From NCBI RefSeq assembly GCF_053078305.1, contig NZ_CP166875.1: a stretch of DNA of 64,000 nt; one strand, written 5' to 3'. Source of the stretch: a plasmid. Below the pieces are notes generated by a model. The model was not told the DNA's origin and did no database searches. It saw only the letters and a list, made by a program, of their open reading frames with translations. A program made the translations under genes and the position numbers. Within the stretch, counting starts at the first letter, position 1. Every line of letters starts with the position of its first letter. Shown in pieces: positions 41,270 to 60,420 of this stretch.

Positions 41270-41660
41270 CATCGTCACGACTGCCGGGTCAGCCAGGTCA
41301 TTTCCCGGAGGAGCGAAGCTCCTTCTGCCGTCCGGGTCTTCGGGGATTTCCCCGCAGTGGACCTTTCCGATGGGGGCCCGTTTACCGCCTCACGGGACAG
41401 CTGTCCGGGGGCGGACGCAAAATTTTTAGCCGGGTTCATGGCTAAAAATTTTGTGGCCGGTGCATCTCACCCTGGACAGATGGAACGGGAGGGGGTTACG
41501 TCTGCCCCCTGGAAAGTCCACAGCGGGAAACAGGCCGCAGGGGTGGCGGCAGGAGGGAAGACTGCTGCGCCATCAGGCGCAGTTTCCTCACACACCGTCA
41601 GGTGTGCAGGGAGCGCAGGTCACGGCGCGACTGAAGAAAAACGACGGCACAACAATGGCA
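41270..41660 (-). promoter_or_regulatory. repeated hairpin element, family A copy 1 (Frpo/ssi-like ssDNA promoter candidate)
   Basis: Shares blocks with 44690-45070 and 60050-60420; contains perfect hairpin AAAATTTTTAGCC / GGCTAAAAATTTT. Confidence 0.4.
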
Positions 41661-41734
41661 TGTGGTGGTCACTGGCACACCACTCCCGCACAGGTGAAAA
41701 CAGAGAAAACCGCACGACATTTACAACCAAAAAA

Positions 41735-41820
41735 AAGTGAAATTTCTTCACTTTTTCACGCTTATTTTTCGCGTTGATTTGGTGATTATGATGATAAAAT
41801 AAAGTGAAATTTTTTCACTT
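41735..41820 (+). promoter_or_regulatory. two identical palindromes (AAGTGAA-N5-TTCACTT) flanking a putative promoter
   Basis: Palindromes at 41735-41753 and 41802-41820, AT-rich spacer with TTGATT; just upstream of the HTH gene. Confidence 0.4.
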
Positions 41821-41835
41821 TTTCAAAGGTGTTTT

Positions 41836-42087
41836 ATGACCGGCTGGGAACTGCGAATCTGGCGAAAAAGCATGCTCTGGTCACGCGAAAAAGCGGCCAG
41901 AGAATTTGGCGTGACGCAGAGAACATGGCACGCCTGGGAAAATGCGGAACAGGTGGATGTCACCGTCTGGAGGACCACCCAGGCACTTTCAGTCCGTGAC
42001 CTGCTGCCTCACATGCAGGGGATGCGTAAGGCAGATATCATCAGGCGTCTGGAAAATGAACTGGGGGAAACGGCAGGGAATGTGTGA
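41836..42087 (+). CDS. small HTH DNA-binding regulator (Cro/XRE-like)
   Basis: 83 aa; segment AAREFGVTQRTWHAWEN typical of an HTH; preceded by twin palindromes. Confidence 0.5.
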   Translation: MTGWELRIWRKSMLWSREKAAREFGVTQRTWHAWENAEQVDVTVWRTTQALSVRDLLPHMQGMRKADIIRRLENELGETAGNV

Positions 42088-42117
42088 GCGTGATTCACAG
42101 CCTGGCTGAATGCCAGG

Positions 42118-42324
42118 CTACTGCTCATCAGGAAACAGCTTTTTCAGTTCTTCACCGGAAAGTCCCGTGACCTCCTGAATCCGTTCCGGCGGCCAGCCTA
42201 TATCCCGCAGCCGGCAGGCTATTTCCCGCGCCACTTCAAGAACCCCTTGTTTAAAACCTTCTTTAAAACCTTCTTTAAAACCCTCGTCGAAACCTTTCTG
42301 TATAAGACGTTCTGCAATCGTCAT
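42118..42324 (-). CDS. stand-alone small protein resembling an Rpn C-terminal domain (RpnS-like)
   Basis: SD AGGAG before ATG; resembles the C-terminus of the adjacent Rpn (TIAERL..KG...TGLS.EEL.K); contains KEGF x3 tandem repeat. Confidence 0.45.
   Translation of the reverse strand: MTIAERLIQKGFDEGFKEGFKEGFKQGVLEVAREIACRLRDIGWPPERIQEVTGLSGEELKKLFPDEQ
42249..42287 (-). repeat. 12-bp tandem repeat x3 encoding (GFKE)n
   Basis: ttctttaaaacc repeated three times on the + strand. Confidence 0.8.
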
Positions 42325-42386
42325 GCTGTTTGCTCTGCTCCTGCTGGCAAAAAAGCCCGGGATTTTGCCGGGCTTTGTGGTTCTCA

Positions 42387-43301
42387 TCAGTGAGTGATTT
42401 TCTTCAGTTCGTCATCGGAAAGTCCGGTAGCCTGCTTAATCTGCTCCGGCGTCATCCCCATTTTCTGAAGCTGGCACGCAATAGCCAGGGCTTTTTCAAG
42501 CGCTCCTTCCATGCGTCCTTCCATCCTGCCTTCCTGGCGACCTTTTTGCTCAAGACGTTCTGCGATAGTCATCAGTTTATCCTCATGCTGCGGCAGACGC
42601 TCAGCCAGCGCCCGCATAAATTCCGGTGATACAGAGTCCCCTGCGTTAACGATGTAATGAATCAGAACACGCACCTGTTCATCTGAAATTTCCACCATGA
42701 CCTGCGGGAGTTTGTCCAGCAGCTCCATCATGTCACGATGGCGGATATGCTTCATCAGCAGCGTCAGTGCGGCCATCCGGCGATGGTTCATGATTTCATT
42801 GTCATCAACGACAGTGATATCAACCAGCGGAAACGGCTTTGTGTATATTTTAGCCGCAAGAGCCGGATTCTCAAAACAGCCCAGCCAGTTCATGCTGTAC
42901 GGGTACGGGCTGCGCTCACCGTGATAGAACAGCACCGGAATCACCAGTGGCAACGTTTTGTGCTGCTCCAGATGTCTCTGCATCGCCGCCACACTGTAAC
43001 GTAACATGCGAAAAGGCATGTACAGATTTTCGGTGCTCTGGTGCTCGATGAGCGTATAAACATAGCCGTCTTCACCCCCGGTGGTTTTCACGCTCCAGAG
43101 GATATCGCTGGCGTACTGATGCAGGTCCGGCTCTACAAAGGTGGCGGGTTCCAGCTTCAGCGTGGACAGGTCGCACAACTGCCGGTACTCCGCAGGAAGA
43201 TGCAGTTCCAGAAAATCTCTGGCGACGTCGGGATTCGCCAGGAACGACCGGAACGCGGCATCATGCGGCGTGGGCGTTGTGGTGTTTTTCTTCTTACTCA
43301 C
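42387..43301 (-). CDS. Rpn-family recombination-promoting nuclease (YhgA-like PD-(D/E)xK)
   Basis: 304 aa; N-terminal region typical of YhgA/Rpn proteins; C-terminal repeat domain QEGRMEGRMEG ... TGLSDDELKK. Confidence 0.65.
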   Translation of the reverse strand: MSKKKNTTTPTPHDAAFRSFLANPDVARDFLELHLPAEYRQLCDLSTLKLEPATFVEPDLHQYASDILWSVKTTGGEDGYVYTLIEHQSTENLYMPFRMLRYSVAAMQRHLEQHKTLPLVIPVLFYHGERSPYPYSMNWLGCFENPALAAKIYTKPFPLVDITVVDDNEIMNHRRMAALTLLMKHIRHRDMMELLDKLPQVMVEISDEQVRVLIHYIVNAGDSVSPEFMRALAERLPQHEDKLMTIAERLEQKGRQEGRMEGRMEGALEKALAIACQLQKMGMTPEQIKQATGLSDDELKKITH

Positions 43302-43687
43302 GGTTCCTCCATCAAATCAGCAGCATCGCAGCAATCATCGCCCAAATCCCCACAACCGAGAGGACAGCAATTGCGTTCAAAGCCATGACAACAATAGCCG
43401 CGTTCTGAGTCACGGCGTATTTCTTCAGCAATCTCTTCTGCGGAAAGGTAATCAAACTCCTCACGGGCCAGTTCCAGGACCAGTAGATGTTGTTCTGTCG
43501 GCAATGTGGCCACAAAATTATCAATAGCAGCACTCAAACGTCGCTGATATAGCTCATAAACAAGACCACAACGGGGCATTAGTTCTTCGGATAATAGTTC
43601 CAGTTTTGAGCGAATTCTGTCAGCGTTGAAAGTGACTTCATCAAAAGACATATGAAAAGCTTTGTCAGTATCAAAACAAGACTTCAT
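43298..43687 (-). CDS. hypothetical acidic protein with Cys-rich C-terminus
   Basis: SD GGAGG before ATG 43687; C-terminus CCHGFERNCCPLGCGDLGDDCCD. Confidence 0.4.
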   Translation of the reverse strand: MKSCFDTDKAFHMSFDEVTFNADRIRSKLELLSEELMPRCGLVYELYQRRLSAAIDNFVATLPTEQHLLVLELAREEFDYLSAEEIAEEIRRDSERGYCCHGFERNCCPLGCGDLGDDCCDAADLMEEP

Positions 43688-43863
43688 TGTTATCTCCAGC
43701 CCTCCCGGGCCCTGAATGAAAGAGAATCTGTTTCCCTTTTCTGTTTTTTGTGGAGACACCATGCAACACAGACGTCGTGATGTTTTTCATCTTGCTCACG
43801 GTTCCTCCTGGTAAAGTACCTGAACACATCCTGCCACCTGCACAGGCAGACGGCAGGGGTTAA

Positions 43864-44130
43864 TCAGTGACAGACCCGTTCAATTTCAAGCGCGCGGAGC
43901 AGGTGGCCCCATTCGCTGACTTTCATGGCGGGGATACGTACCCGCTTCTGCTCACTGCAGCGTCTGGCGATATGACCGCCCATCGCCAGGACGTCCGGGT
44001 TAATCTCATCCGGTGCCAGTTCCTGGCGTCTGAAGCGGGTATGGCGGTGCAGGGGTTTATTCTCCCGCAGGCACTCTTCACGCAGACGCTTTACATACTC
44101 GGCGGTTGCGAAGATAATTGATGGTCTCAT
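43864..44130 (-). CDS. hypothetical basic protein (88 aa)
   Basis: SD GGAG before ATG 44130. Confidence 0.4.
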   Translation of the reverse strand: MRPSIIFATAEYVKRLREECLRENKPLHRHTRFRRQELAPDEINPDVLAMGGHIARRCSEQKRVRIPAMKVSEWGHLLRALEIERVCH

Positions 44131-44222
44131 GGCATAATCTCCATAGTTAGTGAATGAGATGCCGGACTTCCGTACGGGGAAGCGCCGGCGGAGAGAGGCA
44201 GGGTTTATCGCCCTGCTTTTTT

Positions 44223-44657
44223 TCATTCCGGACAGCGACGCAGTGCCAGCGCGAGCGCTTTCATCTTCCAGCCTTCCGGCGTGCGGTACATCACCTTCCA
44301 GTAGCCGTCGATGAACACATAATGGAAGCGCACCTCTTCAGTGCTTTCCGTGGCGATGGCCTCCCTGAAAGAACGGTACTCACGCGCCTCACTGTCCATC
44401 CGGAAACCACTGTCACGTCCGTAATAAGCCGTCACACCGTCCACCGGGTTCTGAAGCGTATGCCCGGCGGGTTTGTCGCAACGGGGACCGAGGCAACGGA
44501 TATCACCGTGTTCAACCAGGGCTTCGGCCTGCTGACCGGTGGCATAGTGGGTATGCAGGATGCGACCGTTCCAGGTCGGCTCACCGTGCAGGTGGCAGTA
44601 AACGGTACGGAACACCCCGTCGCGGCAAAAAACGGAAATCGTGCTGCTGACTGTCAT
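44223..44657 (-). CDS. hypothetical leading-region protein (144 aa)
   Basis: SD AAGGAGA before ATG 44657; directly downstream of hairpin element A2. Confidence 0.45.
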   Translation of the reverse strand: MTVSSTISVFCRDGVFRTVYCHLHGEPTWNGRILHTHYATGQQAEALVEHGDIRCLGPRCDKPAGHTLQNPVDGVTAYYGRDSGFRMDSEAREYRSFREAIATESTEEVRFHYVFIDGYWKVMYRTPEGWKMKALALALRRCPE

Positions 44658-44689
44658 GAAAACGTCTCCTTCTGCTGAATCAGGTCGCC

Positions 44690-45070
44690 GGGCCGACCGA
44701 TTGCTCCCCCGGAGGGGCGAAAGCCCCTTCTGCCGTCCACTTCTTCGGGGTTTCTCCCCGCAGTGGACCTTTCCGATGGGGCAGCGACAGCCACGGCACG
44801 GGGCAGTTGTCCGGGGGCAGACGCAAAAGTTTTTGACGCTTGCGGCAAAAAGTTTTGTGGCTGGTACATCTCCCCCCTGGACGGCTGACACGTGTTGTGG
44901 CCGCTTCAGCCCCCGGAAAGTCCACAGCGGGAAACAGGCCGCAGGGGTGGCGGCGGAAGGGCAGACAACTGCGCCATCAGGCGCAGTTTCCTTACACACC
45001 GTCAGGTGTGCAGGGAGCGCAGGTCACGGCGCGACAGAGGCGGCGCGACCGGAACGGTCGCTGCAAGCCT
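44690..45070 (-). promoter_or_regulatory. repeated hairpin element, family A copy 2
   Basis: Same ordered blocks as copy 1; hairpin CAAAAGTTTTTG / CAAAAAGTTTTG with TTGACG in the stem. Confidence 0.4.
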
Positions 45071-45388
45071 GGTTTTTCAGACATCGGACCGTAGCGGCAG
45101 CCCGAAACCGCGCCAGCGGGTTCGGCGGAGACTGGCGGGTGCGCCAGCAGCTGCCTGTCGGAGTCGGGCCTGACGACCGGATGCCGCCAGGCAGCCGGGA
45201 GCCGAAGGTGTCCCCGCCTCCGGAAATCAGAACAACAGAAACGACATAACAGAAAAATGCCTCACACCATGACGGGCAGGAAGGGCAGCGCCGCAGGCGC
45301 GGCCCTCCTGCATTTCAGGCAGGCGTAAGCCTGCCAGGGTTTTCCGGCGGCCTGGCAGGCCATACCCCCGCCGGAGCGGGGGAGTAAA

Positions 45389-45889
45389 TCACCGACGGAA
45401 CACATGACCGTCAATAAAGGTGAAGGAGTCCAGGAATAAATCCCGCGCATACGCCTCATAGTCAAAATAGAGCGCCACCGTCTCCGGCACGTCAGCCAGC
45501 AGGCCGGTATCACTGGCGAACTCAACCGCAAAAGCCTCCTCACTGTCAGCCTCGCCCCACCAGGCATCGCGGAAGCTGTCAAAATCCGTCTCACCGGTAT
45601 CATCCACCCAGAGACGATAAGCCTCTTCGCAGCCTTCATCCCGTGCCCGGCGGAAGCCTTCAACCCAGGCCCAGTTGATATGACATTCAGAGGCCATATT
45701 CCCCGGGAATCCCTCATAATCCTGAAACATCAGTTCAGGATCGGCTTCATCCTGGTGAAGAGCACGGCAGGCGGCGAAAAAGTCGCGCTCATCATCAAAC
45801 GTGGTCAGGTCAAACCAGCGTCCGGCGATGCTTCCACAGTTGTATTTGTGCCAGGTTCCAACGTATACAGCAGGTGCAACAACAGACAT
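45389..45889 (-). CDS. ardA: antirestriction protein ArdA (DNA mimic)
   Basis: 166-aa highly acidic protein starting MSVVAPAVYVGTWHKYNCGSIAGRWFDLTTFDDE, recognised as ArdA; SD GGAGGA. Confidence 0.85.
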   Translation of the reverse strand: MSVVAPAVYVGTWHKYNCGSIAGRWFDLTTFDDERDFFAACRALHQDEADPELMFQDYEGFPGNMASECHINWAWVEGFRRARDEGCEEAYRLWVDDTGETDFDSFRDAWWGEADSEEAFAVEFASDTGLLADVPETVALYFDYEAYARDLFLDSFTFIDGHVFRR

Positions 45890-46302
45890 TCCCGAATCCT
45901 CCATAGTCACATGTTCTGCGACACCGGGCGGTGCCGTGCCTCCATCTTTGCCGGGCCTGCAGGGATGCAAGGGCGCAAGGAAAGCCGCAGCCCGACGCGC
46001 ACGGCTGACGGGAGTTGGAGGGTGAGACCGCGAAATCTGAGCGGGTGAACGACCGGAAAATCACGGCAGACGGGAAGGAGGGACCGGGTGACCGCAGCGG
46101 TTCATCTTACCTTGCAACCCGCCCGCAGAAGCCCGGCTACGATGGAGGCACGGCACAGCCCGCACACGACGCTGAGGCCACATAACTGAAAACCCACAAG
46201 GCCATGCCCCGCATGGCCGGGTAAAGCGGAGCCTGCGGCGACATCCTTTTGCTCTTTCCGGGGACCGGCTGGAAAAGGCGGAGATTTTCCCCGCCAGCGT
46301 CA

Positions 46303-47073
46303 TCATTTCCGGATTTTCGCCAGTGCATCCGCCATGCTGCGGATTTCAGTCCGGGCTTCCAGGACCACCTCCCGCAGAATATCCCGGTCAAACCAGCGAC
46401 GGGACGGTTCATCAGGTATACGCAGCACATCGCAGGCCAGCCCACTGGACAGGATATGCTCCACACACTCACTGACCAGATACATTTCCACCGACGAAAA
46501 ACGAGCGCCCCGGTTCAGGATGGCATCGAGCACCACGGGCAGGTTTTCGTCGTCTTCATCGAGCCAGCAGGGGTGATCGCTTTCCTTCACAACCAGACGA
46601 AAGCGGCGCGTCTGGCGGGTCAGCAACGTCTGACCGGTGGTAGTCAACGCCGCACGGATACGCCGCGCATCTTCTGCCACCCGGCAACTGACACTGCATA
46701 CTGCATCGCGCACCGCATCAAGAACTGCCCTGATTTCGTCTTCGGTCAGCCATTCTCCGGCATACGGGAAAGACACCTGCGTTCCGTCTGCCGGAAGTAC
46801 CGGCAGCGACTGCCACTGACTGCCGGACAGAACAAGTTCCGCCCCGGTTCCGGTCAGTTTCTGAATGGCAGAGGCCAGGAGCGGCGGCAGTACGCCGCCG
46901 TGACGGTTGATAAGTAACGTCGCCAGCCGGGGCGCATCCAGCCGCACGTAAATGCTGATCCAGCCCGGATACTTCGGGTTCCGCTGGTCAACATCCGTTT
47001 CTTCCGGCCAGCCCTGCGCCAGCAACAGGTTGCTGGCGTGGCGATAAATCAGTGCATTCAGCGTTTCATTCAT
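46303..47073 (-). CDS. hypothetical leading-region protein (256 aa)
   Basis: SD GGGAG before ATG; same strand as ardA. Confidence 0.5.
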
Positions 47074-47117
47074 AATTCATGAACTCCCTGTATCGCCGCC
47101 CGAAGGCGGCGATAACA

Positions 47118-47552
47118 TCAGTCGTTTTCGTGTGTGTTGTTTTTCAGCAGGGTGCGGGCCTGATTAACCACCTCCTGACGGCGGGTGACGCATTCCGGGA
47201 CGGCGAGGCCATGATCCCGGGCGGCCCATTCACGTTTCCACAATGCCTGCTCAGCGGTCTGAATCAGGGACGCCAGCAGTTCAGCAGGGACGGTCACCTG
47301 GCGGTTTTCGCTCACGTTATTGATGATCTCCATCACCGCAGCGGAAGAAATACCGGACTCAATCCGCTGTTCTTCCGGGATGTCCTCCAGGCGTGCCAGG
47401 ACGGTCCTGATTTCATGACCGGTCAGAGAAATTTCCATACCGTCAGCCAGTGCCTGAATCTCTTCCGGGGACCAGACAACCAGCATCAGCGGCGTGTTCT
47501 CCGTATACTGCGCTGCCAGCTCACGGCAGAGCGTTTCGCATGTTCCGTACAT
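47118..47552 (-). CDS. hypothetical leading-region protein (144 aa)
   Basis: SD AAGGAGA before ATG 47552. Confidence 0.45.
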   Translation of the reverse strand: MYGTCETLCRELAAQYTENTPLMLVVWSPEEIQALADGMEISLTGHEIRTVLARLEDIPEEQRIESGISSAAVMEIINNVSENRQVTVPAELLASLIQTAEQALWKREWAARDHGLAVPECVTRRQEVVNQARTLLKNNTHEND

Positions 47553-47565
47553 TCTCGTCTCCTTC

Positions 47566-47787: not shown

Positions 47788-48471
47788 TTACGCAGCCTCC
47801 GGCATAAACCAGTCATCATTCGCGGCCCCCTGCTGCATGGCCCGTTGTACGGCGGCAAGGCGTTGCTGCCCGGCACGGTGATACTGCTCAAGCAGCTCGA
47901 TACCGATATACCGGCGTCCGGACTGGAAGGCGGCCACGCAGGTTGAGCCGCTGCCTGCAAACGGGTCCAGCACAATTGCGTTCGGGTGTGTGAAGCTCTC
48001 AATCAGCGGTTGCAGGCTGGTAACGGGCTTTTCCGTCGGGTGATGACGATTGCCTGAATATTTCCAGCCCAGCACGTCCGGCAGCGGGTTTTGTGGCAGA
48101 CGTGGACGGCCTTTTGCCAGGATGTAGGCACATTCGTGGCGATAGCCCACATATGCGGCCTTCGATGTGTAGTTTTTGGTGAAGACCAGGTGACCAACAA
48201 CGCTGAATCCCGCATTTTTCCAGGCAGACATAAAACGATCGACGCGATTCCAGCCATAGAAGCTCACCATTAACGCGTCTTTTTTGAGTACGCGGTACAT
48301 CTCATTACAGGCCGGTTGCAGCCATTCATCGGTTTTATCGCCGGCAATGGTACGCCCCTGACGGTCACGAAAACCGACGAGGTACGGCGGGTCGGTGAGG
48401 ATGAAATCAATGGCGTTATCAGGGATACGGGCCATAACATCGATGCAGTTACCGAGGACAAAACGGGACAT
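47788..48471 (-). CDS. orphan DNA methyltransferase (N6-adenine/N4-cytosine class, DPPY motif)
   Basis: Motif IV FILTDPPYL; C-terminal AdoMet-binding segment VLDPFAGSGSTCVAA; SD GAAGGAG; no adjacent restriction enzyme gene. Confidence 0.7.
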   Translation of the reverse strand: MSRFVLGNCIDVMARIPDNAIDFILTDPPYLVGFRDRQGRTIAGDKTDEWLQPACNEMYRVLKKDALMVSFYGWNRVDRFMSAWKNAGFSVVGHLVFTKNYTSKAAYVGYRHECAYILAKGRPRLPQNPLPDVLGWKYSGNRHHPTEKPVTSLQPLIESFTHPNAIVLDPFAGSGSTCVAAFQSGRRYIGIELLEQYHRAGQQRLAAVQRAMQQGAANDDWFMPEAA

Positions 48472-48485
48472 ACCAAACTCCTTCT

Positions 48486-48830
48486 CTTACAGAGGGCACC
48501 GGGAGGGCCCCCCTGTGGTGCCCGTTCCCCGCTGCCTGTGGGCTGTTCACCGCGTCCGGTAACGGGTCAGGCCGACCGTGGAATACCGCAGCCGTCGTCT
48601 TTTTGACGGCAAGGTTATGCCGCGAAAGCGGCTTGAAGGGCGTTCATCAGAAAAGGGCGACGGGCTGGCGTACACTGTCACCGGTGCCAGCCGGGAGCGG
48701 TAAAAGCGCCCGTCCCGTGCCCGGCCGGACGCGGGACACTGACCACAGGCAGCGTTTATGCCGCGCCGCGTCAGCCGGCGCAGTAAAAAGAGGAGCACGG
48801 CGACATCCTTTGTCGGAAAAGAAACGGGCG
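48486..48830 (-). promoter_or_regulatory. long imperfect-hairpin element, family B copy 1 (Frpo/ssi-like ssDNA promoter candidate)
   Basis: Near-identical to 49800-50115; distal arms complementary (CGCTGCCTGTGG ... CCACAGGCAGCG); contains TTGACGG. Confidence 0.45.
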
Positions 48831-48855
48831 GTTGCCCGCCCGTCTCCGTCATACT

Positions 48856-49782
48856 TCATCCGCCATAATGCGCCACCTTGTCGACTATCCACGCAGGTCC
48901 GGTGACTTCCGGCAGCTCATCGTCATCTGTCGGGGAAGACCATTCCAGTTCCCCCCACAGCACATCAACGAGCTCTCCGCGCTCATACAACTGCCAGCCA
49001 CAGAAATTGCAGCCCTGTTCGGCGTACCAGTGCTCCAGCGTGCAGCCGAAACGGCGGCTTAATTCTGCAACAACGTCGCTTTCCGGCTGACACCACGGCG
49101 TGTCGAAATCTACCTGAATGAAGTTTTCCCCCTGACTGCTGATATTCAGGTCATACCCACAAGGCCACTTCACGCCATACCGTTCTGTATACCAGTGATA
49201 TGCAGAAGGAACACCGTTCAGAACACCGCCGTTAAAGCCATTCACTTCAATATCCAGGCGGGTCGGCAAAACCGTCAGCAGGTCAAACGGCATGGTTTTT
49301 TCCGGCAGTACGTTGTCACACAGACGGTTCCACCACACCGATACATCCTCGTTACCCCAGATGTCACACCAGTCACCTCTTTTTGCGGTGAAATGCACAG
49401 TGATAGTTTCCCTGACATCATCCGGTAACTCTTCCCAGCGACGCTGTCCAGTACCGCTCTGCAGCCAGAGTTCATGCAGCATCAGGCAGTTTTGCTCATC
49501 CAGCAGTACACCGTTCTGCAGGTGTGTCAGCCAGCGGGTGAACGCGATATTTTCCGGTGATACAGCACCACGTCCGGCAGCCGTCACTCCGGGGCACTGC
49601 TCAGAGCGGATATTTTCAGTGATCTGCAGAAGTCCGGCACTTCCGGCCAGAAACAGCTGAATACCTTCATTTGTGGCGCGGCGATAAAACGGTGTGACTG
49701 CACCGCTGGCCAGTCGTTTAATCTCAGCAATCTGTGCCGGTTCACCAGAAAAATACATACGATTCGAGCACCAGTTTGGCAT
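48856..49782 (-). CDS. hypothetical leading-region protein (308 aa), Trp/Cys-rich
   Basis: SD GAGGAG before ATG 49782; directly downstream of element B2. Confidence 0.5.
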   Translation of the reverse strand: MPNWCSNRMYFSGEPAQIAEIKRLASGAVTPFYRRATNEGIQLFLAGSAGLLQITENIRSEQCPGVTAAGRGAVSPENIAFTRWLTHLQNGVLLDEQNCLMLHELWLQSGTGQRRWEELPDDVRETITVHFTAKRGDWCDIWGNEDVSVWWNRLCDNVLPEKTMPFDLLTVLPTRLDIEVNGFNGGVLNGVPSAYHWYTERYGVKWPCGYDLNISSQGENFIQVDFDTPWCQPESDVVAELSRRFGCTLEHWYAEQGCNFCGWQLYERGELVDVLWGELEWSSPTDDDELPEVTGPAWIVDKVAHYGG

Positions 49783-49799
49783 GGGAATTCTCCTCACAG

Positions 49800-50115
49800 G
49801 AGCACCGGGAGGGAGCCCCTGTGGCGCCCGTTCCCCGCTGCCTGTGGGCTGTTCACCGCGTCCGGTAACGGGTCAGGCCGACCGTGGAATACCGCAGCCG
49901 TCGTCTGTTTGACGGCAAGGTTATGCCGCGAAAGCGGCTTGAAGGGCGTTCATCAGAAAAGGGCGACGGGCTGGCGTACACTATCACCGACGCCAGCCGG
50001 GAGCGGTAAAAGCGCCCGTCCCGTGCCCGCCGGACGCGGGACACTGACCACAGGCAGCGTTTATGCCGCGCCGCGTCAGCCGGCGCAGTAAAAAGAGGAG
50101 CACGGCGACATCCTT
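49800..50115 (-). promoter_or_regulatory. long imperfect-hairpin element, family B copy 2
   Basis: About 97% identical by eye to copy 1 over roughly 310 bp. Confidence 0.45.
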
Positions 50116-50159
50116 TTCCCCTGAACATCCGTCAGCCTTTCTCTGCGGCAAGATCAATC

Positions 50160-50385
50160 CTTAACAGAAAAAAAACCAACAAGCACCCACATAAAAAACA
50201 AAAAACCCAAGCAACACCCACACAAACAAAAAAAACACCCAGAAAACACCCAAAGACAAACAACAATAAAGTAATGAAACCCATAAAACACCCAAAAAAA
50301 GACAAAAAAGATTAAATAGCACTTGAACGCCACCAAAAAAATACTATTATGGGTATAGACACCCAAACGACACCCAAAAGAGGAT
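50160..50385 (+). repeat. parC-like centromere: A/C-rich iterons (ACACCCA and variants)
   Basis: At least 8 direct copies of (A)ACACCCA in a C/A-rich tract directly upstream of the ParM-like gene. Confidence 0.45.
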
Positions 50386-50388
50386 TTT

Positions 50389-51360
50389 ATGATTAAGATA
50401 TTCTGTGATGATGGTTCTACAGCGGTTAAGCTGGCATGGTTTGAAAACGGGGAACTAAAAACCCTCATTAGTCACAATTCTTTCAAGGAAGGCTGGAACA
50501 CATCAGGATTTGGCAGTGAGAAAACTTATAATTACTTAGTCGATGGAGAGAAATATGCGTTTGATACACATAACCCATCAGCAATAGTCACAACCAATAT
50601 TGAGTTTCAATATAGTGTAGAAAATCGTCTCGCTGTACATCACGCACTACTACAAACAGGAATGGAGCCTGGGGATGTAGAGCTTTGGGTTACATTACCT
50701 GTATCTGAATATTTCACTACAGATATGCAAGAGAATTCGGATAACATAAGAAAAAAAATAGAAAACCTGAAAAAAGAAATTACACTGAATAAAGGCAGCG
50801 TATTTTCAATCAAGAAAGTTCATGTATTACCCGAGTCTCTACCTGCAGCGTTGACCTCTCTCGAAGAGGATAAAGTCAGTGATCTTGAAACGTCCCTTGT
50901 CGTCGATCTTGGTGGAACAACTCTTGATTGTGGCGCTATAGCTGGCAGATATAAAAATGTAACACAAGTATCCGGAGAACCTGGTCTTGGCGTAACTCTG
51001 GTAACAACGGCGACAATGAATGCCCTGAAACAGGCAGGAACGCATACCAGCTACTATATTGCAGATCAACTGGTTAGAAACAGAAATGCTGATGATTTAT
51101 TCGAAATTGTTGTTAATGACAGCAGTAAAATAGATGATGTGAAATCAGTAATTGAAAACAGTATTACAAGACTTTCAGACAGAGTTATAAATCATTTACA
51201 CTCGTACAAAGGGATAAATCGTATATACATGACTGGTGGTGGTGCGGAACTAATCTACCCTGCAATAAAAAAAGCATTCCCCTTATTAAAGGATAAAGTA
51301 AAAATTTTACCAGATGCGCAATTAGCCCTTGTTATTTCTATTGCTGAAATAAATCGATAA
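50389..51360 (+). CDS. parM: actin-like plasmid segregation ATPase (ParM/StbA family)
   Basis: N-terminal IFCDDGSTAVKLAW and phosphate-2 motif VVDLGGTTLD; overall resemblance to R1 ParM; 323 aa. Confidence 0.75.
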   Translation: MIKIFCDDGSTAVKLAWFENGELKTLISHNSFKEGWNTSGFGSEKTYNYLVDGEKYAFDTHNPSAIVTTNIEFQYSVENRLAVHHALLQTGMEPGDVELWVTLPVSEYFTTDMQENSDNIRKKIENLKKEITLNKGSVFSIKKVHVLPESLPAALTSLEEDKVSDLETSLVVDLGGTTLDCGAIAGRYKNVTQVSGEPGLGVTLVTTATMNALKQAGTHTSYYIADQLVRNRNADDLFEIVVNDSSKIDDVKSVIENSITRLSDRVINHLHSYKGINRIYMTGGGAELIYPAIKKAFPLLKDKVKILPDAQLALVISIAEINR

Positions 51361-51371
51361 TGAGGTACAGG

Positions 51372-51923: not shown

Positions 51924-51936
51924 TTATTCAAAGAAA

Positions 51937-51958: not shown

Positions 51959-52033
51959 GTTTACACGTTAACCACCCTGCAATTCTGCCACTCCTGATGC
52001 GGAATAACAGGACAGGACCGGGAACAGTCAGGC

Positions 52034-53560: not shown

Positions 53561-54183
53561 TTTGCCGTTGCGTCCTCCCCGTCCGTCATCCCGGCCAGAG
53601 CGACCTGTTTTTTCTCCCACCGTCGGTCCCGGATGGCCAGCCAGCGTTGAGCATTTTTTGCCTCATCCTCAGAAACCAGCCCGGCAGGCTTACCGTCGAG
53701 GTCATAGCGGGTGGCACCGGTGACAGCGGTACGCAACAGATAGACACGGCGGGAGGTGATACAGGATACGGCACAGTCCCATTCATCCCGGGTGAGTCCG
53801 GCTTCAGGGTGCTCAGCCAGCCAGGCAGGAATATCGCGGGAGATACCGACCCTGAGAGGCAGAAAACCGCCGCCTTCAGCGCGAAGATGCGGGAAAATCG
53901 CCTTGACCTTTTCCATGCACTGGTCGGTGAACTCCCGTGTCCAGTGCTCTCTGAGGGGTCTGCGTGGTGGTCTTCCTTTCCTTTTTTTTCCGACGGCAGC
54001 AGGCGCAGGAGACGCATCCTGGATGGGGGCTGGCAGCTGCTCATCAGCAGCAGCCGGTGGTGCCCCCACTTCCGGTACAGGCGAAATGACAGTCTCTGTT
54101 TTATCGACGACAGGTGGTGGTGAAATAACGCGACGTTTTTTCACCACAATGACGGGCGTTTTCTTTTCCTGATTCCTGGCCAT
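53557..54183 (-). CDS. ProQ/FinO-domain RNA-binding protein (FinO-like)
   Basis: Basic/Pro-rich N-terminus; C-terminal domain aligns by eye with FinO (PLRVGISRDI ... GATRYDLDGKP ... EDEAKNAQRWL). Confidence 0.55.
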   Translation of the reverse strand: MARNQEKKTPVIVVKKRRVISPPPVVDKTETVISPVPEVGAPPAAADEQLPAPIQDASPAPAAVGKKRKGRPPRRPLREHWTREFTDQCMEKVKAIFPHLRAEGGGFLPLRVGISRDIPAWLAEHPEAGLTRDEWDCAVSCITSRRVYLLRTAVTGATRYDLDGKPAGLVSEDEAKNAQRWLAIRDRRWEKKQVALAGMTDGEDATAK

Positions 54184-54635
54184 TAATACCCCGACAAGAT
54201 TAAATTCTGGTTAACGATATCATTATACAGCGAATAATATAATTATGGTTCACGTATTATTATCCGTGACTCTTTCCTGGTAACTCCCGCATAATAACTT
54301 CACTTTTCCAGTATTCCAGAAGATGATGTTTTTTCCTCGATAATAAAAATGTGCCAATATGGAAATAAGAAATCGGATTTTTTATCAGCATACGCAAATT
54401 TTCAGATAACAATGAATACAGATGTATTTTATATACACAGATAAAACCGCGCAACAGACATAAATATGACAGTAGCATGAAAAAGCAGAGAGAGACAGGG
54501 TGATACAGAAAAGTAACTATTTTTTTAGCTATAGTATTATTGGTTTTACCTATTTTCGTGATTGTGTTTCTGTATATTGGGGGTTCGCGCCCATTTCCTC
54601 TAAAAGTCTCACCTTGCTTAGGTAATTAATTGAAT

Positions 54636-55217
54636 TTATTTATAAAACGTTGCAATTTTAGCATCATTTTTTATTGTTCTTTTTAACCTGAAGTACGTCG
54701 ATCGAGAGATACCTGTTTTTTCTGTCACACTGCCCAGAGATTCTCCCTGTGATATAAGCTCCAACGCTGTAGGCGTTCGTGGATGCTTCTTCCTGCCAAA
54801 TTTTACGCCTGCGGCAAGTGCCGCTATTCTTCCGTCGTTTGTCCGCTCCAGAATACGCTCACGTTCCGCTTCAGCTACAGCAGCAAGGATTTGGATAACC
54901 ATTTTGCCCATTGTCCCTTCTGTACTGAGACCGTTCTCCAGGAACCGGATGGCGATCCCCTTTTTGTAACAGCTATCAACCACACGAATCATGTCAGCAG
55001 TGTTACGCCCCAGTCGGTCCATTTTTGTACAGATGATTACGTCGTCTTTCTCTGCACGGGCCAACAACCGCTGTAGTCCTTCCCGTTCATCAGTTGCGCC
55101 AGTCATCATATCCGTAAAAATACGATCTTCCCGTACCCCGGCATTTTTTAGCTCCGAGATTTGATGTGTTAGCTTCTGATGACTGGTTGATACCCGTGCA
55201 TACCCCAATAACGCCAT
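54636..55217 (-). CDS. tnpR: serine recombinase (resolvase TnpR)
   Basis: N-terminal LLGYARVSTSHQ catalytic motif; C-terminal HTH. Confidence 0.8.
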   Translation of the reverse strand: MALLGYARVSTSHQKLTHQISELKNAGVREDRIFTDMMTGATDEREGLQRLLARAEKDDVIICTKMDRLGRNTADMIRVVDSCYKKGIAIRFLENGLSTEGTMGKMVIQILAAVAEAERERILERTNDGRIAALAAGVKFGRKKHPRTPTALELISQGESLGSVTEKTGISRSTYFRLKRTIKNDAKIATFYK

Positions 55218-55373
55218 TTTTAGTCTCACTTATCGTTTTTGACACTGCATGGTATCATAATGTACAAAATACGATTTTTGAAACCTGCTTTTATGCTGTT
55301 TTAGACAGGTATCAGATATCTTAATATTTGATACTAGCCATATTTAACAAATATTTAGCATTTTGGTAAATGT
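55218..55373. promoter_or_regulatory. res site region between divergent tnpR and tnpA
   Basis: AT-rich 156-bp divergent intergenic region; subsites not resolved. Confidence 0.4.
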
Positions 55374-58300
55374 ATGCAGAAGTACAAGAAAAGAATTAGT
55401 ATATTAACAAAAAGTGAAATAAATGAATTATATCAAGTCCCCTCTTTTAATCCTGTTGAAAGGGATGAGTTTTTTTCGCTGGATATCAGCCTTAAAAGAG
55501 AAATTGATAAAATAATAAATATAGAAAGCAGGGTGTATCTGATATTAATAACAGGGTATTTCAGATATAAACCTGTGATTCCTGAATTTACATTAAAAGA
55601 CGTAAAAAGGGATGTGAAATATATTATCCAGACATATTATAAAAACGAAAGTACTAATCTCAATTTAAACATACCTAAAAGTACAAAGTACCGCCTTGTT
55701 AAACGAATGCTTTCTACTCTAGGATTTGAACAACTCACCCCATCTATAAAAAATGAGTTAAGTGAACGTCTGAATGATGTTGCTACTATATGTATGGAAC
55801 CAAAATATATTTTTGATGAATTACTTGCTTTTTTAGGACAGCGGCGTATAGCTCTTCCTGGATACAGTACTGTCCAGAACCTCGTTTCAGATGCTTTAAA
55901 CTTTGAAAGGAAAAGGACAATTAATATTTTGTCAAAGAGAATTTATCCTGCCACTGCACAAAAGATTACATCCATCATCCATGATGATGGAATATTAAAT
56001 TCCATCAGGGGATATAATTATAGCACGAGAGACTTCTCAGCATCAGAAATAGAAAATGAATTAAGAACTCACAATGTGATAAGTAGTATTTACTATGAAA
56101 TAAAAGATATAATTAATTCATTAGGTATATCCCAGGGAAACATGGAGTACTATGCAACTATCGTAAAACACAGTACAACATTCAGACTTAAGCGACACCC
56201 TAAATGGCAAGGAATACTTTATTTGTGCTGCTACTTGTACTTCAGATACAGAGAGATAAATGATAAAATAATCACAGCCTTCAGATATTTAGTAAAAAAA
56301 CATAAAGACGCTTCAGTTTTGTTTGCAAAAGCTCGGGCAACAGAGGAAATAGATCTAATAAATAAAAAGCTTAAGTTTGCGAGTAAAATATTTAACTTCT
56401 TCGTTGATAGTAACATTGAAGACAGCATCCCTTTTGGATATGTTCGTGAAAAGGTTTTTTCACTTATATCGAAAGATGATATGCATCTTGTGAGTGAATT
56501 TTTTGACAAAAATAAAATCGATGTAATTGAATATCAATGGCAGTATATTGACAGCCATCACCTTAAGATCGCCAATTCAATCCGAAAGCTTTTTCTGGCT
56601 ATAGATATAGTATATGACAACGAGAAGTCTGTTATTGGCCAGCAAATTACTGCTGCCAAGGATGATCTCAGAGGAAAAGGAAAGCTGGATGCTAAGGATC
56701 TGAGGGTAATTCATCCATCCGAGAAAAATTACATTGTAAAAGAAGGAGAAATTAACACTCAACGATTCGAATTTCATATGTACAGCAGGGTATCTAACCA
56801 TCTGGAAAACGGTGTCTTTTATGCTGCGGAGAGTGAACAAAACAAGAGACTGGAAGATGATCTCATAGAACGAAGTTACTGGCATAAGAATAAATCGATT
56901 TTGATAGAGAAAACAGGCCTTGAACGACTTATCACACCAATAACGCAGACTCTTAATGAGCTGGAGAATACCTTTAGCGATAAACTGGCTCGTATAACCA
57001 TTGGAATAAACTCAGATGCTAATGAGTTTGTGAAAAAACAACCACACTCCAACAGATTACAGTGGAGTCTGGCCAGTAAAAAATGGAAGACCAGCATCGA
57101 TAATCCGATTTACAATCAGATAAAAAATATCGGAATAGTTGACGTAATGAAGTATGTAAACAATGAGACGAATTTTTTGTCTGTGTTTAATGCCATATCA
57201 TCCAGGAAAAATAATCTTGAAGCTGACTATAATGACCTTCTTGCCTGTATATTTGGTAATGGCGCAAATTATGGTGTTCACAGAATGGCATCTGCATCAG
57301 ACCGTAGTATTGGAATACTACGTGATGTGAATGACAAATTCATTCGTCCAGAAACAACAGGAATGGCCAACACAGTAATATCTGATGCAATTGCAAATCT
57401 TTCTGTATATAAATACTGGACGATAAATGAAGATTCTCCATTTGGAAGTGTTGATGGGCAGAAGCACACTTGCAGAATAAATACATTTAAAGCCCGTTAT
57501 TCTGCCAAGTATTTCAGAAAGGGGAAAGGGGTTTCTGCGATGACACTGGTATCTAATCATGTGCCATTATCAACTGTGGTAATTTCTCCAAATGAATATG
57601 AAGGTCATTTTGCATTTGACTTGTTATATAACAACACCAGTGAAATACAACCAAAGTCATTAGCGACTGACAATCATGGTATAAACAACGTTAATTTTGC
57701 GATTCTTGACATTTTTGGCTATCAGTTTTCACCACGTTATGCAAAATTCAAGAAAATATTTAATGAATTATTTGATGTTATACTGGAGAGTGATAAACTC
57801 ATTATAAAACTTAAAAAACAATTTAACTTTAAGCTCATTGAACATGAATGGGAAAACATCCAACATATTATTTGTTCTTTAAGCAGAAAAACAACCATTC
57901 AAAGTACGGTTGTTAAGAAGTTATCTAATACAAAGCGTAGCAACAAGACATTAGCAGCACTTCGGGAGTATGACCGAGTTATAAAATGCATATATGTCCT
58001 GGATTATGCTGACAATAAAACCTTAAGGCAATTTGTGCAACAAGCACTGAACAGAGGTGAAGCTTATCATCAACTAAGAAGAGCAATAGCATCAGTAAAT
58101 GGAAATCAATTTCGCGGTGGTAATGACTACCAAATAGATCAATGGAACGACTGTGCGAGGTTAATAGCTAATTGTGTAATCTATTATAATTCAGCAATAT
58201 TATCCAGGCTGGTCGAGAAATTTGAAAAAGAAAATAATAAAAAAGCGATAGATGTTCTGGCTAACTTATCCCCAGTAGCATGGAGACACATTCTCCTTGG

Positions 58301-58412
58301 AGGGAATTATTCTTTTGAAGATCAAGTTGCGATCACAAATTTGGACAGTCTTTTGGAGGGAGTAGACCCACTAAGTGATATCGGAGATATTGAGTCCGAA
58401 TATGACGGTTAA
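55374..58412 (+). CDS. tnpA: Tn3-family transposase TnpA (1012 aa)
   Basis: Size, N-terminal region and position inside the IR-bounded element. Confidence 0.8.
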   Translation: MQKYKKRISILTKSEINELYQVPSFNPVERDEFFSLDISLKREIDKIINIESRVYLILITGYFRYKPVIPEFTLKDVKRDVKYIIQTYYKNESTNLNLNIPKSTKYRLVKRMLSTLGFEQLTPSIKNELSERLNDVATICMEPKYIFDELLAFLGQRRIALPGYSTVQNLVSDALNFERKRTINILSKRIYPATAQKITSIIHDDGILNSIRGYNYSTRDFSASEIENELRTHNVISSIYYEIKDIINSLGISQGNMEYYATIVKHSTTFRLKRHPKWQGILYLCCYLYFRYREINDKIITAFRYLVKKHKDASVLFAKARATEEIDLINKKLKFASKIFNFFVDSNIEDSIPFGYVREKVFSLISKDDMHLVSEFFDKNKIDVIEYQWQYIDSHHLKIANSIRKLFLAIDIVYDNEKSVIGQQITAAKDDLRGKGKLDAKDLRVIHPSEKNYIVKEGEINTQRFEFHMYSRVSNHLENGVFYAAESEQNKRLEDDLIERSYWHKNKSILIEKTGLERLITPITQTLNELENTFSDKLARITIGINSDANEFVKKQPHSNRLQWSLASKKWKTSIDNPIYNQIKNIGIVDVMKYVNNETNFLSVFNAISSRKNNLEADYNDLLACIFGNGANYGVHRMASASDRSIGILRDVNDKFIRPETTGMANTVISDAIANLSVYKYWTINEDSPFGSVDGQKHTCRINTFKARYSAKYFRKGKGVSAMTLVSNHVPLSTVVISPNEYEGHFAFDLLYNNTSEIQPKSLATDNHGINNVNFAILDIFGYQFSPRYAKFKKIFNELFDVILESDKLIIKLKKQFNFKLIEHEWENIQHIICSLSRKTTIQSTVVKKLSNTKRSNKTLAALREYDRVIKCIYVLDYADNKTLRQFVQQALNRGEAYHQLRRAIASVNGNQFRGGNDYQIDQWNDCARLIANCVIYYNSAILSRLVEKFEKENNKKAIDVLANLSPVAWRHILLGGNYSFEDQVAITNLDSLLEGVDPLSDIGDIESEYDG

Positions 58413-58478
58413 CAACATGATAAATAATGGTTTTTATGCTAAGAGTGAGACTTTTGGAGGAAATGGGCGCAGAACCCC

Positions 58479-58702
58479 TGTATCTGCCGTTCGGTTTTTG
58501 CACGAAGTTTTTCTGAGCTTTTACCGAACTGCATACGTTGCAGTTTCGCAACCAGCGCCTTCAGCCGGTTGATTTCGGAAGCATAAGCCGCCACCCGCTG
58601 TGAGAGCAGGCGGTTGTATTCAGCCATCTGGCGGATGGTGTCCTGTTGCGTCTGCAACAGTGCCCGCAGGCGGGCGTTCTCATGAGCAAGTGAGGTGTCC
58701 AT
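58479..58702 (-). pseudogene. IS66 tnpC 5' fragment
   Basis: Leucine-zipper-like N-terminus (ENARLRALLQ...) ending inside the Tn3-family IR. Confidence 0.5.
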
Positions 58703-58721
58703 ATCCTCACTTTACAACGGG

Positions 58722-59069
58722 TTATATGCGGATTCCAGCGCGTTCCGTTCGTTTCGGGTGCTTCCAGTTGATACCTTCAAGAAGCATGGATAACTGAGCC
58801 GGAGTAAGGTGCACCTTGCCGTCACGGGTGACTGGCCAGACGAAGCGGCCCCGCTCCAGGCGTTTGGTGAAGAGGCACAGTCCGTCACTGTCAGCCCACA
58901 ACACTTTTATCTGGTCACCCCGGCGTCCGCGGAAGATGAACAGGTGTCCGGAGAACGGGTCATCCTTCAGGACGTTCTGAACTTTTGATGCCAGGCCGTT
59001 AAAGCCATTTCGCATATCGGTGATACCTGCAACCAGCCAGATACGCGAACCTGCAGGGAGAGATATCAT
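58722..59069 (-). CDS. IS66-family accessory protein TnpB (orf2)
   Basis: 115 aa with RIWLVAGITDMRNGFNGL motif. Confidence 0.65.
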   Translation of the reverse strand: MISLPAGSRIWLVAGITDMRNGFNGLASKVQNVLKDDPFSGHLFIFRGRRGDQIKVLWADSDGLCLFTKRLERGRFVWPVTRDGKVHLTPAQLSMLLEGINWKHPKRTERAGIRI

Positions 59070-59746
59070 CAGTGGCTGCTCCCTTTTATTTCGCGGATAA
59101 GTGTCTGTAATAACGCCGGCGTCAGTTTACCTTTAAGCCTGAGAGTTCCGGCCGGCAGAACCAGCTCACAACACAGACTGTCGGACGGTGTATTTATCTG
59201 CTCTGGTTCCTGTGCGGGGGCCGGGATTTTATTATCCGGCTCCGGCGTTAACGTCACGGGAAGCAGTGCCGGCATATTTTTTCCGGAAGGCAGCAGGCCA
59301 CCTTTCCGGTATTGATGGCGCCAGTTGAAGAGCAGGTTATCGTTGATTCCGTTTTCCCGGGCGATCTGCGCCACACAGGCTCCGGGCTGCAGTGACTGCT
59401 CCACTAAGGCGATTTTAAACTCATAAGGGAAGTTGGGCCGCCGGGGACGTTTTTTTACCACGGGGGCTTCGGATATAACGGTGCTTTCAGGACGTACGAC
59501 TGGTACCGTGGAAAATTGTCCGTAAAGGCAGGCATCAAGTTCCTGCTCCGACATGCCTGCGGGCAAAGGCCACGAAAGGCCAGCTCTCCGAAAGCGCACG
59601 AACATACTACAAACTGTTGATTTTGGTACACCCAGGCGACGCCCGGCCACAACCCGGGGTAAATGTTCTTCAAAGTGAAGACGTAAAGCTTCAGTGATCC
59701 AGGTCCGGTGTTTCATACGATAGTGTCCATTAAAAATGATGGACAT
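59069..59746 (-). CDS. IS66-family orf1 (HTH transposase accessory protein); true start may be 59716
   Basis: C-terminal half FPYEFKIALVEQSLQPGACVAQIARENGINDNLLFNWRHQYR typical of IS66 orf1; stop overlaps tnpB start. Confidence 0.6.
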   Translation of the reverse strand: MSIIFNGHYRMKHRTWITEALRLHFEEHLPRVVAGRRLGVPKSTVCSMFVRFRRAGLSWPLPAGMSEQELDACLYGQFSTVPVVRPESTVISEAPVVKKRPRRPNFPYEFKIALVEQSLQPGACVAQIARENGINDNLLFNWRHQYRKGGLLPSGKNMPALLPVTLTPEPDNKIPAPAQEPEQINTPSDSLCCELVLPAGTLRLKGKLTPALLQTLIREIKGSSH

Positions 59747-59798
59747 TATTTTTGTAGAGCCGGAGGAAACAGACCAGACGGTTTAAATGAGCCGGTTA

Positions 59799-59964
59799 CA
59801 AACAAATTCGCTTCATAAATTTCATAGTGCAGACCACATCCCCAATGAGCCTGCTTTTCCAGCCTGCTGATCACCACATCAGCCCGGATAACATCAAAGG
59901 GATTGCGGGAATGAATATTACGAATAAAGCCATCGGTACGTGCTGCTGACATATTTCTGCCCAT
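59799..59964 (-). pseudogene. 3'-truncated ORF interrupted by the IS66-family element
   Basis: SD AGAGGTG before ATG 59964; reading frame runs into the IS terminus; directly downstream of hairpin element A3. Confidence 0.3.
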
Positions 59965-60049
59965 CTTTAATACACCTCTGTTTTTTGCCCCCATCATCTG
60001 TTGAGTTTCGGGAGCCGCGGTTTTGACGTTTTGCGGGGACCTGCCTTTT

Positions 60050-60420
60050 GTTCCCTCCGGTATTCACCATCACCTGTTTGAGAACCTTCGCCGCAAGGGG
60101 CATCACTGCCACGGCCGGAAACGACTGTCCGGGGGCAGACCGCAAAAGTTTTTGCCTGCTTTTGGGCAAAAAGTTTTGCGGGATGTGCATTTCACCCCTG
60201 GACTGGCGGAGACGGTTGTGGCTGTCTTTGCCCCCGGCGACAGGGGCTTAAACAGGTGTATGGCACCGGACACAACAACGGGCAGGGACCCGCCGCAACG
60301 ACGAAGAGCGCGTGCGCGAAACGGCGTTGCCCCTTACATCCCGGCGGCCTTTTGCCGGGATGCCAGGAGCGCAGGCCACGGCGCGACAGAGGCGGCGCGA
60401 CCGGAACGGTCGCTGCAAGC
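60050..60420 (-). promoter_or_regulatory. repeated hairpin element, family A copy 3
   Basis: Shares the CAAAAGTTTTTG hairpin and the 60-bp block CGCAGG(T/C)CACGGCGCGACAGAGGCGGCGCGACCGGAACGGTCGCTGCAAGCC with copy 2. Confidence 0.4.

Follow-up and report, generated by a model that had tools for sequence, protein, structure and literature searches.

Three copies of a long hairpin element, here called A1, A2 and A3 (family A), were found in the window, that is, the whole 64,000-nucleotide (nt) stretch of plasmid contig NZ_CP166875.1 (assembly GCF_053078305.1) that was analysed. They are very probably class-1 single-stranded DNA (ssDNA) promoters of the ssi1-3/Frpo/ssp1 kind, A1 and A2 being of the ColIb subtype and A3 of the F subtype. 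Family A consists of already-known elements; the family was described in 1997-1999 and re-examined in 2023-2026, when ssi1-3 and the Frpos were brought together as 'class 1' ssDNA promoters (Wen et al. 2025) and named ssp1 (Fraikin et al. 2026). Only mildly new are the co-occurrence of both subtypes in a single I-complex plasmid, the mosaic make-up of copies and the insertion sequence (IS) behind A3.

Identity of the three copies

Five Frpo/ssi reference sequences (Supplementary Table 2 of Samuel et al. 2024) were compared with the whole 64-kb window by BLAST. Matches were obtained at three loci only, A1, A2 and A3, with E-values of 1e-111 to 1e-157 over the full length of approximately 330-350 nt. 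A1 (41308-41631) was 96.0% identical over 326 nt to positions 11381-11711 of ColIb-P9 (AJ238399). A2 was 87.3% identical over 331 nt to ColIb-P9 positions 4353-4678 and 84.9% identical to positions 1459-1787. For A3, the identity was 95.2% over 352 nt to ssiD of F (D90178) and 86.7% to Frpo2 of F. The original prediction, made from the sequence of the window alone, was of a repeated non-coding hairpin that precedes minus-strand genes in the leading region, and it agrees well with this identity of 87-96% to the ColIb-P9 ssi repeats and F ssiD/Frpo.

The three places proposed there do hold related elements, with a similarity far beyond chance, except that A3 begins at about 59988 and not at 60050. 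A1 and A2 were 83% identical across about 330 nt, with their blocks in equal order, and A3 was 76-77% identical to both across about 110 nt around the hairpin apex. The same five ordered blocks had been expected in all copies. This was true of A1 and A2, whereas only two of the five, the AT-rich hairpin and CGCAGGYCACGGCGCGA, were present in A3; the other three are restricted to the ColIb-type copies A1 and A2. Moreover, the first and third of the listed blocks (CCCGCAGTGGACCTTTCCG / CGGAAAGTCCACAGCGGG) are not independent, as they form the two arms of one long lower stem. A distal block shared by A2 and A3 was 91% identical over 70 nt. This block, with its small hairpins GCGCAGGYCACGGCGCG/GCGACCGGAACGGTCGC, was also seen upstream of the Salmonella Frpo-like candidates and lies outside the published 328-nt repeat.

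Transferred strand and leading region

Judged from its sequence, the window is the origin of transfer (oriT) and leading region of an IncK2/Z (I-complex) conjugative plasmid. Positions 41200-45300 were 100% identical to the E. coli plasmids pL2-87 (NC_025145.1) and NZ_CP038793.1, and pL2-87 is typed in PLSDB as IncK2/Z, MOBP, MPF_I and conjugative. The inverted repeat of an R64-like oriT occupies 39800-39845, and after it comes CACATCCTG|TCCCGTTTTT at 39848-39866, a nick-region motif that contains ATCCTG|T. We take the nick to lie near 39857, where the MOBP/R64 consensus YATCCTG|Y places it, the repeat lying on its 5' side in the transferred strand. Because of this consensus and the position of the repeat, we infer that the + strand is the transferred strand (T-strand) and that higher coordinates enter the recipient first. 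The genes beyond oriT, including ardA, a DNA methyltransferase gene, hok/sok, psiA and psiB, are nearly all on the minus strand, which fits this assignment. A1, A2 and A3 lie about 1.45, 4.85 and 20.1 kb past the inferred nick, respectively, with minus-strand genes directly downstream.

Folding of the elements and its conservation

The proposed check by ssDNA folding gave a clear result, since each + strand copy folded as one long imperfect hairpin. The z values were -10.7, -9.6 and -9.7 for A1, A2 and A3, respectively, and 0 of 100 dinucleotide shuffles folded as well. The predicted hairpin is thus present, but its 12-nt arms are only the tip of a structure that spans 184-316 nt. A conserved single-stranded bulge was found around 41460-41468 in the A1 hairpin; that of A2 reads GTACATCTC (44864-44872), and A3 has a loop at 60157-60164 and its bulge around 60185-60193.

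For comparison, 17 sequences were assembled, comprising the three window copies, three from ColIb-P9, two from F, candidates from Samuel et al. (Serratia, an insect metagenome and Salmonella) and four further plasmids. All 17 formed the same long hairpin, while the outer stems of the subtypes were unrelated in sequence. Covariation, the second check proposed, was assessed in an alignment of 14 diverse homologues by projecting each sequence's own fold onto the alignment columns and counting the pairs. The proportion of paired cells was 82%, compared with 42-52% when partners were slid by 1-3 columns, although this percentage is partly circular, the structure having been derived from the same sequences. 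Changes on both sides of a pair are, together with the slid controls, the fairer measure, and such compensatory changes were found in 29 of 73 pairs against 11-15 after sliding. None of 500 shuffles reached the observed values. When RNAalifold was applied to a plain MAFFT alignment, no more than 27 pairs were recovered, since sequence alone does not allow the outer stems of different subtypes to be aligned.

In all 17 sequences the T-strand fold was more stable than that of the complement, the mean difference being 11 kcal/mol, and it contained more G-T wobbles. The difference points to selection on the transferred DNA strand in its folded form, and not on the transcript or the complement.

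Proposed mode of action

According to the papers that cite Masai & Arai 1997 and Nasim 2004, the ColIb-P9 ssi repeats and F ssiD/Frpo are experimentally established ssDNA promoters, and the same status was reported by Couturier 2023 and, using 5' rapid amplification of cDNA ends (RACE), by Wen 2025. Deletion of Frpo1 and Frpo2 abolished early expression (Couturier 2023), and the operons behind ssi1-3 of pESBL were induced up to ~500-fold 15 min after mating, with their starts mapped by 5' RACE (Wen 2025). An anti-CRISPR driven by Frpo was effective only from the T-strand in the leading region. In these reference elements it is the folded single strand that RNA polymerase recognises, and the RNA made can prime DNA synthesis; ssp1/Frpo transcripts prime conversion to the double strand in vivo, and the promoters are switched off by conversion to double-stranded DNA.

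If A1-A3 act in the same way, the + strand would enter the recipient 5' end first from the nick, and before complementary synthesis each element would fold up as a long, imperfect hairpin with a stem that resembles a double-stranded promoter. The host's sigma-70 RNA polymerase would bind this stem and transcribe the T-strand towards lower coordinates, so that the establishment or anti-defence genes downstream would be expressed in a short burst. This RNA may also prime synthesis of the complementary strand. Once the DNA was double-stranded, the hairpin would be gone and the promoter off. A1 would drive the DUF4942 gene and A2 a five-gene operon (42118-44657), whereas A3 would drive what is left of its cargo, its transcription now entering the IS66-family genes tnpA and tnpB.

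Candidate promoter boxes

ssDNA promoters characteristically have unpaired bases at the -10. The arrangement that we prefer, and consider fairly probable from comparison of the copies, takes a TGGAC(N)/GTCC duplex as the -35, followed by 17 bp of stem, TGTGG/CCAC and a mismatched -10 zone. TGGAC was nearly invariant across the 14 homologues, and the TGGAC duplex, TGTGG and the mismatch zone were kept across all subtypes. With these boxes the 5' arm would be the template and transcription would run from the loop side to the hairpin base. The conserved TGTGG/CCAC resembles an extended -10, and the start would lie about 7 bp further towards the base. The predicted starts are on the 5' arm, near 41370-41376 in A1, 44775-44781 in A2 and 60092-60098 in A3. 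The mismatch zone agrees with the unpaired -10 bases typical of ssDNA promoters, and the Frpo2 construct that was functional in Samuel et al. stops just below this zone; both points also favour this arrangement.

Several points weigh against these boxes or against the role of A1-A3 as promoters. A consensus scan found no canonical linear sigma-70 promoter on either strand of A1 or A3, and the sequences proposed as -10 are weak and poorly conserved. The non-template arm of F Frpo2 has a 20-nt spacer, which shortens to 17 bp only when a 3-nt bulge is left out of the count. A3 has lost its native cargo to ISCro1, and for the copies on this plasmid promoter activity, single-strand specificity and priming are all deduced from 87-96% identity to the reference elements. 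Furthermore, the D90178 record (F ssiD) contains TTGAGA-17-CATACT, which is closer to consensus and suggests a different arrangement for F-type copies, with a promoter on the 5' arm (TTGAGA-17-CAT(A/C)AC) and transcription up and round the loop; starts would then be on the 3' arm and the RNA would include the entire apical inverted repeat. We rank this arrangement second. Its -35 is not conserved in the ColIb-type copies, and the functional Frpo2 construct (Samuel et al.) lacks the partner strand for it, whereas the TGGAC duplex of the preferred arrangement is shared by all subtypes.

Two other placements were tried. The TTGAC-like hexamer that the original prediction saw in the hairpin arms occurs in A2 only (TTGACG), the same position being TTTAGC in A1 and TTTGCC in A3; as a -35 it was rejected on account of this restriction to A2 and its direction, which is towards the loop. 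The conserved bulge T(A/G/T)(C/T)AT(C/T) was not adopted as a pre-melted -10, as this would place the accompanying -35 in the loop, in a sequence that is not conserved.

Alternative explanations

The elements might serve solely as priming signals for complementary-strand synthesis and have no role in downstream expression. In agreement with this, ssiD was originally isolated as a signal for priming, RNA made from Frpo primes DNA synthesis in vitro, and early conversion near ssp1/Frpo sites is rifampicin-sensitive in vivo. However, all copies, in this plasmid and in its relatives, lie directly upstream of co-oriented genes with Shine-Dalgarno sequences, and with ssi1-3 operons induced up to ~500-fold, priming is additional to expression and not an alternative to it. 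We consider a priming-only role very unlikely, and we give equally little weight to a role at the RNA level or in double-stranded DNA (a 5'-leader fold, a terminator or an insulator between operons) in which the DNA hairpin would be incidental. Small hairpins do occur at the distal end of the elements, just past the preceding operon (45040-45078 and 60361-60430), and any inverted repeat also folds in a read-through transcript. Yet the T-strand was more stable than the transcript-sense strand in every one of the 17 sequences (mean 11 kcal/mol), because the G-T wobbles become A-C mismatches in the latter. No T-run terminators were found on the minus strand within the elements; terminator-like matches were limited to one in A1 (+ strand) and one in A3 (minus strand, within chance expectation), and Rfam gave no match at E <= 1 inside any of A1-A3.

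Stop-free stretches were present in several frames and on the two strands simultaneously, which a G+C content of ~60% leads one to expect, and it could be asked whether A1-A3 encode proteins, either in + strand open reading frames (ORFs; 41261-41740, 44641-45249 and 60023-60619) or in minus-strand ORFs of 68-90 amino acids (aa). The annotation pipeline PGAP indeed places 68-aa hypothetical proteins inside the Frpo hairpins of some plasmids. For both strands, however, NCBIfam contained no family that matched the ORFs inside A1-A3, and since the indels between copies are almost all of 1-2 nt, no reading frame is preserved. In addition, A1 has no counterpart of the minus-strand ORFs, and the 68-aa ORFs begin on the 3' arm past the loop, which is upstream of the transcription start with the preferred TGGAC boxes, though not with the 5'-arm boxes. 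A coding function is therefore close to negligible in our judgement, in line with the original view of these ORFs as non-coding. Such 68-aa coding sequences are annotated by RefSeq as 'hypothetical protein' inside the F-type Frpo hairpins of the IncF plasmids pKL8-NDM (L123:1388-1594) and pLAO105 (L124:1390-1596); with no frame conserved in the family as a whole, these entries are probably artefacts of annotation. A mobile or recombinational repeat with no promoter role, such as an IS remnant or a relative of miniature inverted-repeat transposable elements (MITEs), would account for copies that are dispersed and are mosaics of one another, for the deletion of a 9.7-kb leading-region block by recombination between such repeats in another plasmid, and for the IS and transposon insertions that cluster nearby. 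Against this stand the lack of any transposase-family match and of coding capacity, an orientation and position fixed relative to oriT and the downstream genes, a strand-specific fold maintained by compensatory changes, and the finding that 98.8% of places are on plasmids and not scattered through chromosomes. We regard this origin as extremely improbable; the copies resemble fragments neither of a protein gene nor of an IS or MITE.

Distribution and mosaic structure

The element was found in 3067 of 5426 complete E. coli genomes (57%), with a median of 2 copies, and 7535 of its 7626 places in these genomes were on plasmids. At least 5000 PLSDB records, mostly of conjugative Enterobacteriaceae plasmids, also contained it. 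A search of genome contigs with the pattern TGTCCGGGGN{40,70}CCCTGGAC, which was badly specified (17 fixed bases and 31 gap lengths), returned at least 120 chance matches in G+C-rich genomes, and none of the matches listed was homologous to the element.

When A1 and A2 were compared with the three ssi copies of ColIb-P9, both proved to be mosaics with breakpoints near the hairpin base and around the apex. The first ~70 nt of A1 correspond to the oriT-proximal ColIb copy (1459) and the remainder to the ssb-proximal copy (11381), at 97% identity or more. In A2 the base is that of its positional counterpart, but the apex is that of the oriT-proximal ColIb copy (1459; 37 of 38 positions). The pattern indicates recombination or gene conversion between dispersed copies. 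There is a precedent in pO111-CRL115, where a 9.7-kb block of the leading region has been lost and a hybrid repeat marks the place.

Genes downstream and surroundings of A3

As had been predicted, A1 and A2 lie directly upstream of minus-strand genes, of 283 aa (with a Pfam DUF4942 domain) and 144 aa, respectively, and A3 precedes a minus-strand ORF disrupted by an IS. No function emerged for the 144-aa gene from searches of NCBIfam and Pfam. The positions of these and the other features are collected in Table 1.

Table 1. Position of family A elements, their parts and neighbouring features in the window (A1-A3 very probably class-1 elements; promoter boxes are candidates)
Feature	Position	Strand	Remarks
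Relaxase gene (nikB)	36690-39410	-	adjoins oriT
nikA/mobA	39422-39754	-	adjoins oriT
oriT core, R64-like	39800-39857	+	read from sequence; inverted repeat, then nick-region motif CACATCCTG|T
DUF4942 gene	40408-41256	-	Pfam DUF4942; downstream of A1
A1, ssi/Frpo class-1 element, ColIb subtype	41306-41633	+	BLAST and fold
A1 main hairpin	41347-41530	+	184 nt, 69 pairs, loop 41432-41439
A1 candidate -35-like TGGACA	41473-41478	+	3' arm, paired with GTCC on 5' arm
A1 candidate -10 zone	41496-41503	+	17 nt after -35; TTACGT 41496-41501, TCT unpaired 41501-41503
Last A2 operon gene	42118-42387	-	
Rpn-family nuclease homologue, A2 operon	42387-43301	-	
Further A2 operon genes	43298-43687, 43864-44130	-	
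144-aa gene, first of A2 operon	44223-44657	-	
A2, class-1 element, ColIb subtype	44710-45037	+	BLAST and fold
A2 main hairpin	44725-44961	+	237 nt, 96 pairs, loop 44839-44842
A2 candidate -35-like TGGACG	44878-44883	+	inferred
A2 candidate -10 zone	about 44901-44908	+	3-nt bulges on both arms: ACA 44787-44789, TCA 44906-44908
Distal conserved block	45009-45078 (A2), 60361-60430 (A3)	+	repeat comparison; small hairpins GCGCAGGYCACGGCGCG, GCGACCGGAACGGTCGC
ardA	45389-45889	-	
ardA-upstream hairpin	45909-46248	+	arms 45925-45956 / 46131-46162
Repeat pair, ~315 nt, 97-99% identical	48496-48811, 49802-50116	+	long hairpin, z = -6.1
Tn3-family transposon	54574-58483		39-nt inverted repeats 54574-54612 / 58445-58483; transposase 55374-58412; resolvase 54636-55229
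ISCro1 (IS66 family) tnpB	58722-59069		
ISCro1 (IS66 family) tnpA	59069-59746		
Native gene remnant, 83-aa ORF	59746-59997	-	N-terminus of a gene of 107 aa in pF95-3
A3, class-1 element, F subtype (ssiD/Frpo1-like)	59988-60336	+	BLAST and fold
A3 main hairpin	60040-60286 (60006-60321 in larger context)	+	247 nt, 91 pairs
A3 alternative 5'-arm boxes	60078-60083 (TTGAGA), 60101-60106 (CATCAC)	+	17 nt between; rival reading
A3 candidate -35-like TGGACT	60199-60204	+	inferred
A3 candidate -10 zone	60222-60228	+	CTGTCT 60222-60227, CTT unpaired 60226-60228

Between A1 and the end of the A2 operon, a palindrome, AAAGTGAAATTTnTTCACTTT, occurs twice (41729-41758 and 41796-41825) just upstream of a + strand gene for a helix-turn-helix regulator (41836-42087). 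The two palindromes look like putative operator sites for this regulator.

A3 is flanked upstream by hok/sok-psiA-psiB and downstream by a truncated native gene and ISCro1. Homology to most plasmids stops at about 59976, downstream of A3. The IS, which cut the native gene, ends at 59799, and positions 58477-59799 were 100% identical to ISCro1 of pF95-3, a plasmid in which a homologous Frpo is followed by an intact ISCro1. In the window the transposase gene of ISCro1 has been lost to the Tn3-family transposon, the nested insertions together occupying 54574-59799. A sok antitoxin RNA (Rfam RF01794, 87 bits) was identified at 61013-61184 on the minus strand and lies, with its hok gene region, between A3 and psiA, a placement as in F, in which flmAB sits between Frpo1 and Frpo2.

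Comparison with known systems

A1 and A2 resemble ssi1-ssi3 of the IncI1 plasmids ColIb-P9, R64 and pESBL, with 83-96% identity over the ~328-nt repeat and the same hairpin and gene orientation. Their distances from oriT are close to the ColIb-P9 reference coordinates 1459 and 4353 (AJ238399). Unlike the ColIb-P9 repeats, A1 and A2 are mosaic, their host is IncK2/Z and not IncI1, and an ssb-proximal copy, if there is any, lies beyond the window. A3 resembles Frpo (= ssiD = Frpo1) and Frpo2 of F (95% and 87% identity), and its neighbourhood is also as in F, with psiB-psiA-hok/sok upstream and small leading genes downstream. In contrast to F, A3 shares an I-complex plasmid with ColIb-type copies and has its native downstream gene truncated by ISCro1. 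The single-strand origins (sso) of rolling-circle plasmids likewise combine a folded single strand, host RNA polymerase and a primer RNA, as does the minus-strand origin of filamentous phages. Both lack homology to family A, however, and serve replication only, without downstream expression.

The class 2 and class 3 ssDNA promoters (upstream of ardA/klcA and of M.EcoGIX; also 'Frpo3', 'ssp2' and 'ssp3') work on the same principle of a long T-strand hairpin but have no sequence similarity to family A, and ssp2 is also a replication roadblock. The window has further hairpins of this general kind. The one upstream of ardA was 78% identical to candidate Frpo'4 of Samuel et al., with an ssDNA fold z of -3.5, and corresponds to the class 2/ssp2/Frpo3 promoter described upstream of ardA/klcA. 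The ~315-nt repeat pair had no BLAST match to the Samuel candidates. Its first copy is upstream of a PRK13699 DNA methyltransferase gene (47788-48471, minus strand) and its second upstream of a 313-aa ORF (48856-49797, minus strand), and the pair may be a class-3 (M.EcoGIX-type) promoter or a relative. The ardA hairpin and both copies of the pair end with CGGCGACATCCTTT (46236, 48798 and 50103). Four tandem-like A/C-rich repeats of ~30 nt (ACCCAnnAAACACCCAnA...) were also noted at 50174-50308, between the divergent ORFs 50154-50468 (minus strand) and 50389-51360 (+ strand).

Implications

Two bolder ideas go beyond the known family, and we regard it as unlikely that either is right. A3 would be an intact F-type promoter whose cargo has been exchanged for ISCro1 in the same orientation, and read-through from an element of this type might couple ISCro1 transposition to conjugative transfer; if so, it would give a burst of TnpA and TnpB (and of TnpC where the IS is intact) at plasmid entry. 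In the second idea, the conserved bulge and the AT-rich apical stem might form a separate docking module, in which case the 9-10-nt bulge GTRCATYTC on the 3' arm and this stem would dock SSB, the alpha subunit of RNA polymerase or a helicase, a function that is undescribed.

The finding on family A itself leaves current understanding unchanged. For the window it indicates which strand is transferred and how far the leading region extends, and it explains as spurious the six-frame ORF calls inside the elements and some 'hypothetical proteins' of RefSeq. It also provides an example of copies that exchange segments and attract IS-mediated rearrangements. Class-1 elements help to start complementary-strand synthesis and so bear on how resistance plasmids get past host defences.

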